Positions 26,725-39,411 of a DNA stretch of 64,000 nt are shown here, piece after piece. Source of the DNA: Anaerolineae bacterium (GTDB taxonomy: Bacteria; Chloroflexota; Anaerolineae; B4-G1; SLSP01); NCBI GenBank assembly GCA_040767155.1, contig JAXGPC010000004.1, positions 415,353 to 479,352 on the forward strand. Reading direction: 5' to 3'. The notes below the pieces were generated by a model. It was not told where the DNA came from, did not search any database, and saw only the letters and a list, made by a program, of their open reading frames with translations. The position numbers were made by a program, and so were the translations under genes. Every line of letters starts with the position of its first letter. Position 1 is the stretch's first letter.

Positions 26725-27789
26725 GTGAACAGCACATGCTCTTACAGACAGCACAGGCCGGCGGTGGCCTGGGGATGCACCGGTGACCGTCAGCCCGCGC
26801 GCAGTGTCGATCCCTCTGTCCATTGCGCACCTGACGGGCTGTACGATGACCCTGGGCCCACCTTCGACACGGACTGCGGGGCGGCGACTCTGATCCGCCT
26901 CGCGGACCGGCACCGTGCCAGCCTCTTCTCCGGGCCACCGTTTTCCATTCGGTGGCCCGTTTTGCGCCCCGTCACAGTGCGCTCGATCTCGACGGAAGCG
27001 CGCGACACGCTCCGTTCAGGGGAGACGCGGGTGCGCGAGCTCGCGCGCTTTGGCCGTGCGATCGACCTGGTCGTGGGGGAGTCGCTCGTCGCACTCGTGG
27101 CACCTGAGATCGGGAACGGACCGTTCCACGCTGTGGTGGATCACCTCCCGGAGTCGGAGTCACCGTGGCGCATCGGCGATGGCGAGCTAACGTGCGGCCC
27201 CTGGCGCATCGCGATCACGCCTGAGACGGTGGTCTGGGATCCGCGCCCACAATGGTCCAGCATCGTGGTTAAGCCTCACGGCGTGCAGGCCGTGGAGCGC
27301 ATCGTGGCCGAACTCGCCGGGCGAAGCCGGTCCCGCTCAGCAACACATGAGGCTCTGGACCGGATGCTGGCGCAGTACATCGCAGACCTGGTCCGGGCCA
27401 TCGCTGGCGGGCATCCAACGGACATCCAGCGGGCGACCAGCGGGCTTGCCGGCCTCGGTTCAGGGCTCACCCCCTACGGCGATGATGTCCTCGCCGGCGC
27501 GGTTCTGGCGCTCTGGGCTGCCCACCACCCCGGGTGCAGCGAAATTGGTGCGATGGTTGCGCGAGCAGCCGCGCCCGCGACCCATGCATTGAGCAGGGCC
27601 TTCATTGATGCAGCCAGCCGCGGGATGGCGAACGCAGACTGGCATGTTCTGTTGGACGCATTGAGCAGGAGCAGCGCGCCGGACATAGACCGCGCCGCGA
27701 GACGGATCGCGGCGACGGGTGATACGTCGGGAGTAGCCATGCTGCGCGGCTTCATCGCAGGATACCGTGCAGGGAGGAGGGACAGTTGA
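26725..27789 (+). CDS. DUF2877 protein, YlbF/AllH-like
   Basis: Positional and compositional match to YlbF (DUF2877), which accompanies FdrA and YlbE(DUF1116) in E. coli. True start likely an internal GTG near 26970 (~270 aa). Confidence 0.5.
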   Translation: MNSTCSYRQHRPAVAWGCTGDRQPARSVDPSVHCAPDGLYDDPGPTFDTDCGAATLIRLADRHRASLFSGPPFSIRWPVLRPVTVRSISTEARDTLRSGETRVRELARFGRAIDLVVGESLVALVAPEIGNGPFHAVVDHLPESESPWRIGDGELTCGPWRIAITPETVVWDPRPQWSSIVVKPHGVQAVERIVAELAGRSRSRSATHEALDRMLAQYIADLVRAIAGGHPTDIQRATSGLAGLGSGLTPYGDDVLAGAVLALWAAHHPGCSEIGAMVARAAAPATHALSRAFIDAASRGMANADWHVLLDALSRSSAPDIDRAARRIAATGDTSGVAMLRGFIAGYRAGRRDS

Positions 27790-37029: not shown

Positions 37030-39411
37030 ATGGCAGTTGAAACGAATCACCCGGTCGGCAAAAGCGTTCCGCGCATTGACGCCCTGGAGAAAGTCACCGG
37101 CGCCGCGCAGTACGTGGATGACATGGCCTTCGGCCCAGGGCTGCTCTTTGGTAAGCTCGTCCACAGCCCGATAGCCCACGGGCTGATCAAACACATTGAT
37201 GTCAGCGCAGCTCTGGCCCTGCCCGGCGTCAAGGCAGTTGTGACGGGACAGGATAACCCTCGTCGCCTCGGCCTCTATCTCAAGGACCGCTTCATCTTCG
37301 CCTACGACCGAGTGCGCTACGTGGGTGAGTCGGTAGCGGGTGTCGTTGCGACCAGTGAGGAGATCGCCGAGCGAGCTGCGGCCCTGGTTCGCGTAGAGTA
37401 CGAACCCCTGGAGCCGATTTTCGACCCTTACCTTTCCGCGCAGCCGGCGGCTCCTCTGGTCCACCCGGACCTGGGGAGTTATGAAGTCGTCAACTTCATC
37501 TTCCCGGAGCCCGGGACCAACATCTCGGAGCACTTTCGCCTGCGTAAGGGCGACACGGACGCTGCCTGGCCCCGCTGTGCAACGGTTGTCGAGGGCACTT
37601 ACAGATTGCCCCAGATCCAGCACGCCCCGATCGAGACGCACGTTGCGGTTGCCCGCTGGGATCCCTCAGACGAGATCACGCTCTGGGCTGCGTCCCAATC
37701 GCCCTTTGCCCAACGGGACCTTCTCGCGCAGAGCCTCGGCGTGCCGCATGGGAAAATCCGTGTCATCTCGCCCTACGTCGGCGGAGGGTTTGGGGGCAAA
37801 GCCGGGATCTCGATCGAGGCCAATGTCGCGCTGATGGCGGGCGCCGTGAAGGGACGCCCCGTCAAGGTCAGGATGACGCGGGAGGAGGAGTTCATTGCCA
37901 CCAATGTGCGCCAAAGCCTTGTGGCAAAGATCAAAGTCGGGTGCGATGCGGACGGCTATCTCCTTGCTATGGAGGTCGCCTATTACTTCGGCGGCGGCGC
38001 GTACAACGACTATGGCGTGAACATCGCGCGCGCTGCGGGCTATTCCTGCACCGGCCCCTATGACGTACCCAACGTCAAGGGCGACTCGCTTTGCGTCTAC
38101 ACCAACCACCCGATTGGCAGCGCGATGCGTGGGTTCGGAATGCCCGAGATCCACTGGGCCATTGAGCAGGTGATGGACCTCCTTGCCGAGCGAACCGGGA
38201 TAGATGCGGCAGAGTTCAGGCGACGTAATTGTGTGCGGACAGGTGATGTCATCCTCACGGGGATGACGATGCCGCAGTCCGATCTGGTCGCCTGCATCGA
38301 CAAGGTCACCCAGGCCATCGGTTGGGGTAACCCGACCACACCCTCCGCCGCCAACAAACGACGCGGCAAGGGCATCGCCATCATGTGGAAGGCCCCAGCG
38401 ATGCCTCCCAATCCTGGTAGCTCCGCCATCGTGCGCTTCAATGAGGATGCCACGCTGAACGTCTACATCGGCGGACAGGAGCTCGGACAGGGAGCCTTTA
38501 CCGTCGCCGCACAGATGGCTGCCGAGGCCCTGGGCATCCCCTACGAGTGGGTGCGCGTCTCCGCCAATCCCGTCGATACGAAGTATAGCCCCTACGAATG
38601 GCAGACGGTCGCCAGCAGGATCACCTGGTCGATGGGCAACGCGGTGAAGGCGGCTGCCGAGGATGCGCGCGCCAAGGTCCTCGATATCGTGGCCCGCTAT
38701 TGGAATGAAGACCCCGCAGACCTCGATATCAAGAATGGCATTGTCGTCTCGTACCGCTCAGAGCGGGAGCAACCCCTGCAGAAGATGGTCGTCTACGGGC
38801 TACCGAACGAGAACTTCGAGGGCTGGCAAGGGGGACCCATCGTCGGGTCGGGCAAGTTCATGCCCACCTACGTCACCGGCCTCGACCCCGAGACCGGACA
38901 GGGGACACGCGCCGTGGTCCATTACACGGTAGGCGCGCAGGCCGTCGACCTCGAGGTGGACACCGAGACCGGCGCGATCGAGATCCTCAAGATCGCCAGC
39001 GCCTACGATGTCGGCAAAGCCATCAACCCGGATCTGGTGATGACCCAGATCGAGGGCGGCGCTGTCCACGGGATGAGTTCGGCATTCGAAGAGCTGCGCT
39101 TCGACAAGGCCGGACGTCCGCTCAACGGTAGCTTCGTCGATTACAAGATTGCGACGGCGAAGGACGCTCCCCGGGCCATCCAGGGCGACATCGTCGAGAC
39201 GCCCCTCGAGGACGGGCCGTGGGGCGCCCGCGGCGTTGGCGAACACGTGATGGTTCAGACCGCTCCCGCGATCGCCAATGCGCTTTACGCGGCAACGGGT
39301 GTCCGGTTCACTGACCTACCCCTCAGTAGTGAGAAGGTGTATCTGGCGATGAACCCGGAAGGTCCCGAGCTGAGTTGCGAGCTGCCAGCAAAGGACTCGC
39401 CTGGCGCCTGA
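37030..39411 (+). CDS. Molybdo-hydroxylase molybdopterin-binding (large) subunit, xanthine dehydrogenase family
   Basis: 793 aa; xanthine dehydrogenase family large-subunit similarity; GGGFGGK motif; no CO-dehydrogenase VAYRCSFR signature seen. Confidence 0.85.
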   Translation: MAVETNHPVGKSVPRIDALEKVTGAAQYVDDMAFGPGLLFGKLVHSPIAHGLIKHIDVSAALALPGVKAVVTGQDNPRRLGLYLKDRFIFAYDRVRYVGESVAGVVATSEEIAERAAALVRVEYEPLEPIFDPYLSAQPAAPLVHPDLGSYEVVNFIFPEPGTNISEHFRLRKGDTDAAWPRCATVVEGTYRLPQIQHAPIETHVAVARWDPSDEITLWAASQSPFAQRDLLAQSLGVPHGKIRVISPYVGGGFGGKAGISIEANVALMAGAVKGRPVKVRMTREEEFIATNVRQSLVAKIKVGCDADGYLLAMEVAYYFGGGAYNDYGVNIARAAGYSCTGPYDVPNVKGDSLCVYTNHPIGSAMRGFGMPEIHWAIEQVMDLLAERTGIDAAEFRRRNCVRTGDVILTGMTMPQSDLVACIDKVTQAIGWGNPTTPSAANKRRGKGIAIMWKAPAMPPNPGSSAIVRFNEDATLNVYIGGQELGQGAFTVAAQMAAEALGIPYEWVRVSANPVDTKYSPYEWQTVASRITWSMGNAVKAAAEDARAKVLDIVARYWNEDPADLDIKNGIVVSYRSEREQPLQKMVVYGLPNENFEGWQGGPIVGSGKFMPTYVTGLDPETGQGTRAVVHYTVGAQAVDLEVDTETGAIEILKIASAYDVGKAINPDLVMTQIEGGAVHGMSSAFEELRFDKAGRPLNGSFVDYKIATAKDAPRAIQGDIVETPLEDGPWGARGVGEHVMVQTAPAIANALYAATGVRFTDLPLSSEKVYLAMNPEGPELSCELPAKDSPGA

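Follow-up and report, generated by a model that had tools for sequence, protein, structure and literature searches.

We analyzed a 64,000-nucleotide stretch of an Anaerolineae bacterium (Chloroflexota) contig, JAXGPC010000004.1, hereafter called the window. Positions 26725 to 39411 of its plus strand carry ten tightly packed, co-directional genes, with gaps, in order, of -4, 12, 117, 9, -1, 169, 39, 13, and 39 nt in the open reading frame (ORF) map. At the center of this group are a cyclase-family hydrolase gene, a trio of genes related to Escherichia coli allFGH, and the genes of a three-subunit molybdenum (Mo) hydroxylase, and the linkage of these three elements is retained across related genomes, which is the signature of a functional unit. 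From comparative evidence, we judge the chances to be about even that all ten genes act as one catabolic operon with which an anaerobic Anaerolineae bacterium breaks down a pyrimidine base resembling uracil (uracil itself, thymine, or both). A preliminary description of this DNA spoke of a twelve-gene operon; we count ten genes, and its own list likewise sums to ten. Pfam and NCBIfam profile searches of each protein bore out all ten of the family assignments made there. The genes are as follows.

26725-27789, plus strand: AllH-like subunit (DUF2877; PF11392, 78.7 bits, residues 242 to 346), with a 4-nt overlap with the AllF gene
27786-29369, plus strand: AllF/FdrA-like subunit (NF004760 FdrA, 465.6 bits against a cutoff of 433; PF00549, PF02629)
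29382-30776, plus strand: AllG-like subunit (DUF1116; PF06545, 325 bits)
30894-31772, plus strand: cyclase-family metal-dependent amidohydrolase, proposed ring opener (PF04199, 103.5 bits)
31782-33014, plus strand: family III CoA-transferase, accessory module (PF02515, 483 bits)
33014-33895, plus strand: CN-hydrolase superfamily amidase, accessory module (PF00795, 160 bits)
34065-35456, plus strand: NCS2 permease, UraA (uracil) type (PF00860, Xan_ur_permease)
35496-36494, plus strand: FAD-binding subunit of the Mo hydroxylase (PF00941, FAD_binding_5; PF03450, CO_deh_flav_C)
36508-36990, plus strand: 2x[2Fe-2S] subunit of the Mo hydroxylase (PF00111, Fer2; PF01799, Fer2_2; 8 Cys)
37030-39411, plus strand: molybdopterin-binding catalytic subunit, xanthine dehydrogenase family (PF01315, Ald_Xan_dh_C; PF02738 and PF20256, MoCoBD_1/2)

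Conserved linkage and predicted functions of the cluster genes

All genes were mapped in a comparative set of 82 related Chloroflexota (Anaerolineae) loci around the cyclase gene. The Mo catalytic subunit was encoded in 54 of these, AllF in 42, AllG in 43, and AllH in 37, and AllF and AllG occurred together in 39 (Fisher p = 4e-15). Cyclase, trio, and Mo genes were linked through at least five gene orders, usually with short gaps, often of less than 100 nt. Because this linkage persists, rearranged, across many species, the association of the genes goes far beyond chance. Assemblies made independently (Logan, JGI, and two NCBI metagenome-assembled genomes, or MAGs) show the gene order of the window as well. 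The NCBI MAG L092 (GCA_040771245.1) has an otherwise identical operon with the AllF, CoA-transferase, and CN-hydrolase genes in fragments, most likely the result of an assembly frameshift error rather than decay.

The cyclase gene was the best conserved of the cluster, with 77 to 100% identity among the best 120 database clusters. Relatives numbered at least 582 in species-representative genomes, and the best 80 were essentially all from Anaerolineae/Chloroflexota, among them Bellilinea caldifistulae, a strict anaerobe that is in culture. The metal-ligand motif of the family (HxxxHxDxxxH) is present as H46-x3-H50-x-D52-x3-H56. Kynurenine formamidase, Mn hydrolase, and isatin hydrolase were the Foldseek matches of an AlphaFold2 model of the protein, which has a predicted local distance difference test score of 69, a low-confidence N-terminal region, and a poorly modeled active-site loop.

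Upstream of the cyclase gene, three contiguous genes (26725 to 30776) carry all of the AllFGH-type domains: DUF2877, FdrA (CoA_binding plus Ligase_CoA), and DUF1116. As experiments have shown, E. coli AllFGH cleaves the N-acylurea oxalurate as an oxamate carbamoyltransferase, and the purified complex moves the carbamoyl group between carbamoyl phosphate and oxamate (PMC11326118). The AllF-like protein has a succinyl-CoA-synthetase-alpha-like architecture of CoA-binding and CoA-ligase domains. Its identity to E. coli AllF (FdrA), with which it has the motif GRxHPMxDPTLRN in common, is 38%, and that to YahF and to the FdrA proteins of an E. coli plasmid and of Peptoclostridium acidaminophilum is 40 to 42% (42% over the full length for YahF and P. 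acidaminophilum). The AllG-like protein shares 50% of its residues with E. coli YlbE/AllG, 49% with YahG, and 55% with its P. acidaminophilum counterpart. The AllH-like protein is 33% identical to E. coli YlbF/AllH across the C-terminal 116 aa and 22 to 28% identical to YahE and to DUF2877 proteins of plasmid and clostridial origin; its start is uncertain (26725 or GTG 26764), as homology to the cluster orthologues begins only at about residues 64 to 85.

The boundary between the AllF and AllG subunits is shifted by ~45 residues relative to E. coli AllFG, with residues 9 to 49 of the window AllG matching the C terminus of E. coli FdrA/AllF. The two window genes lie in one reading frame, parted by one stop codon plus 12 nt, and the YahF/YahG, plasmid, and clostridial pairs have the same boundary, leaving the characterized E. 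coli AllF/AllG pair as the odd one out. A partial AllG (P0081) that is 100% identical to that of the window is labeled Chthonomonadales (Armatimonadota) at NCBI, whereas the other close relatives are from Anaerolineae; this label may stem from a mis-binned or misclassified MAG contig.

Across its three subunits, the Mo hydroxylase displays the canonical domains of the xanthine dehydrogenase family. The catalytic subunit scored under all NCBIfam equivalog cutoffs, including those for XdhA (541 against 780 bits) and for the alpha subunit of 4-hydroxybenzoyl-CoA reductase (4-HBCR; 522 against 995 bits), and the enzyme also fell short of the PucD and XdhB cutoffs. Its best solved relative is 4-HBCR alpha (340 bits), and with E. 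coli XdhA it shares 32% identity. In bovine numbering, which was verified, the subunit keeps the equivalents of Q767, R912, F914, and E1261; E802 is replaced by Ala and F1009 by Pro, and at the R880 column there is an Ala directly preceded by Arg, so that this position is ambiguous. With the catalytic Q767 and E1261 equivalents kept and the purine-binding E802 and F1009 equivalents replaced, the enzyme should, judging by its residues, be able to hydroxylate but is no xanthine dehydrogenase.

A reductase role of the 4-HBCR kind was also considered and is unlikely, given the alpha score above and a beta score of 137 against 405 bits. The FAD subunit of 4-HBCR carries a Cys-rich [4Fe-4S] insertion, which is missing here: the 297-aa FAD subunit has four Cys, three of them contiguous near the C terminus, and no mid-protein insertion. 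This length follows from a start at ATG 35601, which has GGAGG upstream and is more probable than 35496; homologues are 296 to 298 aa long, and in the longer ORF the domain begins only at residue 38. A second, distant paralogue of the Mo subunit (28 to 32% identity) was found with CoxG and a Bmp transporter in L027, L063, and L065.

NCBIfam ranked the permease as a uracil permease (246 bits), followed by RutG and then xanthine permease (pbuX, 148 bits). The protein is under the UraA equivalog cutoff (246 against 477 bits) and is 34% identical to UraA and 25% identical to XanQ; by these measures it is a relative of UraA, not an orthologue. UraA residues F73, E241, H245, G289, and E290, which we take to be the uracil contacts of the UraA structure, are all kept by the window protein and by each of the 32 permeases linked to the cluster, whereas H245, G289, and E290 correspond to D, A, and Q in XanQ. 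This residue signature provides evidence for nucleobase import beyond that on which the preliminary description had proposed it. In 6 loci, nucleoside-type Bmp/PnrA ABC transporters stand in the place of the permease. A cytosine-deaminase-like amidohydrolase (family f53) was present in 3 loci; it is a sub-threshold match that also resembles YahJ-type amidohydrolases (25% identity), and its support for a pyrimidine substrate is weak.

The CoA-transferase and CN-hydrolase, presented earlier as steps of the pathway, are not part of the core. They were encoded in only 12 and 16 of the 82 loci, respectively, with a different protein in most. The CoA-transferase scored under every NCBIfam equivalog cutoff, the best being that of the oxalate CoA-transferase YfdE (399 against 522 bits), and is 35% identical to Frc; its best solved relatives are SUGCT and YfdE, both dicarboxylate CoA-transferases. 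Its start may lie ~16 codons downstream, since gene callers give 394 aa on identical contigs. The CN-hydrolase received no NCBIfam equivalog assignment, and its closest solved relatives, at ~100 bits, are archaeal nitrilase-like proteins, the omega-amidase Nit2, and yeast Nit3; a candidate triad, Glu44-Lys118-Cys154, was picked by eye in the expected motifs, not by alignment. The nearest solved relatives of the two proteins act on dicarboxylates and their monoamides, the latter being what Nit2 hydrolyzes, and both enzymes would fit such chemistry. Loci of the CN-hydrolase type also include two tandem genes after the Mo gene, encoding 320- to 345-aa proteins without a Pfam or NCBIfam match (L036:11936-12925 plus a tandem copy; also L046, L054, L076, and L079).

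The protein found instead, which is absent from the window, has 229 to 241 aa, is unannotated, and is encoded directly after the cyclase gene in 54 of the 82 loci (for example, L013:10934-11641 and L083:10949-11674). It had no Pfam or NCBIfam match, and a 235-aa member had none in a sequence-profile search of the PDB; structure prediction and Foldseek revealed a divergent GNAT fold, and some NCBI records name it an N-acetyltransferase. The GNAT-fold protein and the CN-hydrolase (54 and 16 loci) shared 2 loci (p = 1e-6), and the GNAT-fold protein and the CoA-transferase likewise tended to be mutually exclusive (p = 2e-4). The GNAT-fold gene is followed either by genes for thiolase plus DUF35 or by a set that includes the decarboxylase pump subunit OAD-beta; with 37 and 13 loci, thiolase and OAD-beta shared none (p = 2e-4). 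Because these modules exclude one another across loci, we regard them as alternative solutions for the same two steps.

A carboxyltransferase, a biotin carboxyl carrier protein (BCCP), and OAD-beta are encoded together inside the operon in 13 to 15 loci, with the order FeS-Mo-CarbTr-BCCP-OADb-AllF-AllG-Cyc-GNAT in L083 and L061. In L018, a divergent CoA-transferase gene adjoins the carboxyltransferase gene. The carboxyltransferase gave 620 to 660 bits to propionyl-CoA carboxylase (PCC) beta and methylmalonyl-CoA decarboxylase alpha and 777 bits to TIGR01117 mmdA but only 95 to glutaconyl-CoA decarboxylase. Given this family, together with BCCP and the pump beta subunit and without a biotin carboxylase, the set would be a Na+-translocating methylmalonyl/malonyl-CoA decarboxylase. 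As it is embedded in sister operons, the carbon skeleton most likely exits in the form of malonyl- or methylmalonyl-CoA. Once uracil or thymine has been hydroxylated at C6, its C4-C5-C6 portion amounts to such a malonyl or methylmalonyl unit, and the decarboxylase therefore fits a pyrimidine substrate. A pyridine or glutaconyl-CoA route is disfavored by the same scores (620 to 660 bits against 95).

Some loci are more elaborate. In L040, L044, and L078, another, paralogous module occupies the first ~6 kb on the minus strand and adjoins the main cluster back to back. It consists of a fused double cyclase (554 to 573 aa, ~40% identity), AllG, AllF, and a second GNAT-fold protein, which suggests a second substrate. 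In addition, a small ORF of the PD-(D/E)XK nuclease family (PF13366) occurs at varying positions inside the cluster (L010:14922-15317, and in L008, L009, L041, L059, L060, and L070) and may be a mobile or selfish element.

A proposed pyrimidine pathway and its alternatives

The preliminary description envisaged import, Mo-dependent hydroxylation, ring opening by the cyclase, ureide cleavage, deamidation, and CoA activation. Its core idea holds up, while the last two steps turn out to lie outside the core and the production of carbamoyl phosphate lacks local support. In the pathway that we propose, the UraA-type permease would import the base, as its conserved binding residues suggest. The Mo/FAD/FeS enzyme, which retains the catalytic residues and is without the xanthine-specific ones, would then hydroxylate C6 with water to give barbiturate or 5-methylbarbiturate. 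With its invariant linkage and intact metal motif, the cyclase-family enzyme is the candidate for opening the ring to ureidomalonate (N-malonylurea), in which role it would stand in for the unrelated barbiturase of aerobes. The AllFGH-like complex would next cleave the N-acylurea, by homology most likely through phosphorolysis to carbamoyl phosphate and malonamate; this is the weakest step. In the window, the CN-hydrolase would turn malonamate into malonate and ammonia, and the family III CoA-transferase would form malonyl-CoA, probably from acetyl-CoA.

None of the ten operon proteins matched the uricase, allantoinase, barbiturase, or dihydropyrimidinase families in Pfam, just as first stated, and none matched the barbiturase/cyanuric acid hydrolase or ureidomalonase families in Pfam or NCBIfam. 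E. coli phenylhydantoinase HyuA as a query had no match in the window, and neither a hydantoinase nor Upp was found near the operon. There was also no allantoin-pathway context (allB/C/D/E) in the operon or its flanks by Pfam or by tblastn with AllD.

In sister species, the divergent GNAT-fold protein, presumably CoA dependent, would replace the final two reactions with a single one. Malonyl- or methylmalonyl-CoA would there be handled by the operon-encoded Na+-pumping biotin decarboxylase or by the thiolase/DUF35 pair. One speculation is that the pull exerted by the latter resembles the archaeal thiolase/HMG-CoA-synthase/DUF35 channeling complex.

Put together in full, the proposal is of an undescribed, O2-independent pyrimidine fermentation in Anaerolineae, with a gene for uracil/thymine dehydrogenase, the cyclase as a non-homologous barbiturase, ureidomalonate as a second substrate of the AllFGH/YahEFG family, and energy gain at up to three points. 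We advance this complete version tentatively, holding it possible but somewhat doubtful. If it is true, energy could be gained at carbamoyl phosphate, at the malonyl thioester (by the GNAT-fold protein or by amidase plus CoA-transferase), and at the Na+-pumping decarboxylase.

It is important to point out that several observations weigh against the pyrimidine operon as proposed. Some loci, including that of Bellilinea, have only AllH-cyclase-GNAT, with no AllF/AllG or Mo genes within 10 kb, so these genomes may either do without the trio or carry it at another site. The co-occurrence p values treat loci as independent despite their phylogenetic kinship. No reference sequence is at hand for uracil dehydrogenase, as we found no sequence-linked description of uracil/thymine dehydrogenase (EC 1.17.99.4) in the searchable literature, and for this reason the substrate of the Mo enzyme can only be inferred. 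The best characterized relative of the CoA-transferase, E. coli YfdE (47% identity), is an oxalate enzyme; the window itself yielded no malonyl-CoA decarboxylase; and, by our own estimate, a GNAT-fold enzyme acting on malonamate would be working thermodynamically uphill.

The fate of carbamoyl phosphate is a further difficulty. We searched by tblastn with E. coli YbcF/AllK and YqeA in the window, in the 82 Anaerolineae loci, and in L001, whose operon is almost the same as that of the window (L001 to L083). No carbamate kinase was found in the window or the 82 loci, nor was an ornithine/aspartate-type transcarbamylase or other consumer of carbamoyl phosphate. Outside Chloroflexota, on the other hand, a carbamate kinase gene adjoins the trio in four of four contexts: the E. 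coli allantoin genes (allFGHK); E. coli yahEFG-yahI-yahJ, in which yahI is the kinase gene; an E. coli IncF plasmid (L088, NZ_CP019909.1), with a cysteine hydrolase, carbamate kinase, and cytosine permease; and a P. acidaminophilum megaplasmid (L087), with PucR, two xanthine permeases, a cysteine hydrolase, and carbamate kinase. Because of this difference, the carbamoyl phosphate step calls for caution, and the earlier statement that the pathway conserves energy through carbamoyl phosphate finds no local support. The two plasmid clusters themselves form a module of the order cysteine hydrolase-DUF2877-FdrA-DUF1116-carbamate kinase-(cytosine/xanthine) permease, for whose function we found no description in the literature; AllG matched 194 plasmid records, of which 96 are from E. 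coli.

The operon could also have the same architecture and act on another N-heterocycle, such as a modified pyrimidine, a cytosine- or nucleoside-derived base, or some other lactam or ureide that is plentiful in necromass. The Mo subunit is under every equivalog threshold, and its substrate-contact residues match those of no characterized enzyme; the second modules in three loci and the Mo paralogue in three others imply several substrates within the family, and cytosine-deaminase-like amidohydrolases occur in three loci. The complete UraA binding-site signature nevertheless argues for a uracil-shaped ligand, the malonyl/methylmalonyl-CoA-type decarboxylase fits C4-C5-C6 of uracil or thymine, and the carboxyltransferase family disfavors a pyridine-type, C5 option through glutaconyl-CoA. 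We consider another heterocycle unlikely, although it deserves to be kept in mind.

Alternatively, the substrate could be a pyrimidine and the trio could serve in CoA or acyl transfer instead of making carbamoyl phosphate, either forming a malonyl thioester or cleaving the acylurea with CoA and releasing urea or carbamate. We give this a small chance. AllF does have CoA_binding and CoA-ligase domains, L079 and L060 encode the decarboxylase, trio, cyclase, and CN-hydrolase with no CoA-transferase or GNAT-fold protein nearby, and the missing kinase and transcarbamylase, set beside the kinase found in every other trio context examined, would be accounted for. The purified E. coli complex, however, carries out carbamoyl transfer between carbamoyl phosphate and oxamate, and the window proteins are 38 to 55% identical to characterized and kinase-linked homologues. 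No urease or allophanate hydrolase family stood out in the neighborhoods, in a search that was not exhaustive, and the kinase may be encoded elsewhere in the genome.

Rather improbable, in our view, is a route through oxalurate and oxalate, in which the Mo enzyme and cyclase would convert a five-membered or purine-derived ureide (e.g., hydantoin or a parabanate-type ring) to oxalurate, the trio would be a true oxamate carbamoyltransferase, the CN-hydrolase an oxamate amidase, and the CoA-transferase a producer of oxalyl-CoA. The only characterized trio does work on oxalurate; the CoA-transferase shares 47% identity with the acetyl-CoA:oxalate CoA-transferase YfdE, whose family is also its best NCBIfam match; and isatin hydrolase, a structural neighbor of the cyclase, opens an alpha-keto-lactam five-membered ring, which by our own inference is analogous to parabanate opening to oxalurate. 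Against these stand the lack of an oxalyl-CoA decarboxylase (Oxc) homologue in the window and the 82 loci, with a (methyl)malonyl-CoA-type decarboxylase in sister operons instead, the uracil rather than xanthine/urate signature of the permease, the absence of allantoin-pathway genes from the operon and flanks, and the CoA-transferase score short of the YfdE equivalog cutoff (399 against 522 bits). The specific sequence parabanate to oxalurate, oxamate, oxalate, and oxalyl-CoA was downgraded in view of the missing Oxc, the malonyl-type decarboxylase, and the uracil-type permease.

Finally, accidental adjacency of a purine-salvage xanthine dehydrogenase and permease to an unrelated set of trio, cyclase, and amidase is very improbable, for although the 117- and 169-nt gaps could hold internal promoters and some loci have no Mo genes or trio within 10 kb, the genes stay linked in dozens of species despite at least five different arrangements, with gaps often below 100 nt, the Mo subunit is without xanthine-specific residues, and the permease is not of the xanthine type.

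Operon borders and neighboring genes

Upstream, the operon is bordered by a minus-strand acyltransferase gene (25823 to 26563), and a LysM/M23 peptidase gene also lies in this flank. Downstream, the border is a LiaF-like gene (39483 to 40595), with a DeoC aldolase gene in the same flank. These flanking genes are unrelated to the operon, and the remainder of the window is housekeeping. One candidate signal was located in the divergent intergenic region before the first gene:

26619-26647, plus strand: promoter-like site, TTGACA-17-TACAAT, with 11/12 consensus matches

Sites of this grade numbered 3 in 15 kb against 2.5 expected by chance, and since they are near chance frequency, what speaks for this one is where it lies. 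It has a weaker, divergent partner at 26597 to 26570 of the minus strand. An Rfam scan of 24000 to 42000 identified no riboswitch or RNA family.

Three kilobases upstream of the operon, on the plus strand (21597 to 23705), the window encodes an ADP-forming acyl-CoA synthetase (CoA_binding, Succ_CoA_lig, ATP-grasp_5), which is syntenic in L002; two minus-strand genes lie between it and the operon. It could yield ATP from the acetyl- or propionyl-CoA of the pathway. Farther downstream, on the minus strand (41803 to 47993), are two very large adjacent genes with PMT_2 glycosyltransferase domains (1142 and 921 aa), the first of which also has NHL/beta-propeller repeats; both are unrelated to the operon.

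Relation to known systems

We found no description of this cluster in the literature on the trio domains, the oxidative pyrimidine enzymes, or the pathway intermediates. The type of pathway is already known from aerobic actinobacteria; the enzymes for three of the steps, the anaerobic lineage, and the thioester/Na+ energy coupling would be new. In anaerobic digesters, sediments, and the subsurface, Anaerolineae rank with the most abundant heterotrophs and also with the least understood. If the proposal is true, a nucleobase fermentation operon in at least 580 species would tell which fraction of necromass these bacteria live on and would reveal a dedicated recycling of nucleic acid necromass in anoxic sediments and digesters. 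It would also supply genes for the orphan uracil/thymine dehydrogenase and a second, unrelated opener of the barbiturate ring, and it would broaden the AllFGH family, to which a function was assigned only in 2024 and whose YahEFG and plasmid paralogues are still unassigned. The downstream steps would then be an example of modular exchange, of amidase plus CoA-transferase for a GNAT-fold enzyme and of a Na+ pump for thiolase/DUF35.

Among characterized systems, E. coli AllFGH with AllK has three adjacent genes with the same domains as the window trio (identities of 33% for AllH, 38% for AllF, and 50% for AllG), and the proposed chemistry, phosphorolysis of an N-acylurea to carbamoyl phosphate and an amide acid, would be the same. 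The two differ in that the window order is H-F-G, not F-G-H, and the F/G boundary is moved by ~45 residues. The window also lacks the carbamate kinase and the allB/C/D/E context, and its substrate would by analogy be ureidomalonate, not oxalurate. The yahEFG-yahI-yahJ, IncF plasmid, and P. acidaminophilum clusters share the end-to-end arrangement of AllF and AllG, with identities slightly above those of AllFG, as well as nucleobase permeases and an amidase-type partner gene. Unlike the window, they carry carbamate kinase and isochorismatase-like or amidohydrolase-superfamily partners, and they are without a Mo hydroxylase, cyclase-family enzyme, CoA-transferase, GNAT-fold protein, or decarboxylase.

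The Mo hydroxylase resembles E. coli XdhABC, 4-HBCR, and nicotinate dehydrogenase in its three subunits, canonical domains, and equivalents of Gln767, Arg912, Phe914, and Glu1261, but differs from members of the xanthine dehydrogenase family in scoring under all equivalog cutoffs and in having Ala for Glu802 and Pro for Phe1009. The cyclase has the PF04199 domain, HxxxHxDxxxH motif, and fold of kynurenine formamidase (KynB) and isatin hydrolase. In contrast to these enzymes, it is 292 aa long, with ~130 residues beyond the Pfam domain; its sequence similarity to KynB amounts to only 38 bits, and its genomic context points to a cyclic ureide, not an aryl-formamide. It is also extraordinarily conserved inside its own clade.

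Sister operons resemble Mmd-type Na+-translocating decarboxylase systems in encoding a carboxyltransferase, a biotin carrier, and an OAD-beta pump subunit, and the pairing of CoA-transferase with decarboxylase mirrors the known logic of malonate fermentation. Unlike in Mmd systems, these genes, which are not in the window itself, are set elsewhere inside an operon for heterocycle degradation. In the aerobic oxidative pyrimidine pathway of actinobacteria, the uracil/thymine dehydrogenase is a heteromeric Mo/Fe-S flavoprotein, as encoded here, and the proposed route would have in common with it the C6 hydroxylation, the hydrolysis of the barbiturate ring, and the splitting of ureidomalonate into a C3 dicarboxylate and a C1-N2 fragment. 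The operon differs from it in lacking the Toblerone-fold barbiturase and the amidase-signature ureidomalonase, in place of which it would use ring opening by a cyclase-family enzyme and AllFGH-type cleavage of the ureide rather than hydrolysis to urea. It also belongs to an anaerobic host lineage, and relatives couple it to the formation of CoA thioesters and to a Na+-pumping decarboxylase.

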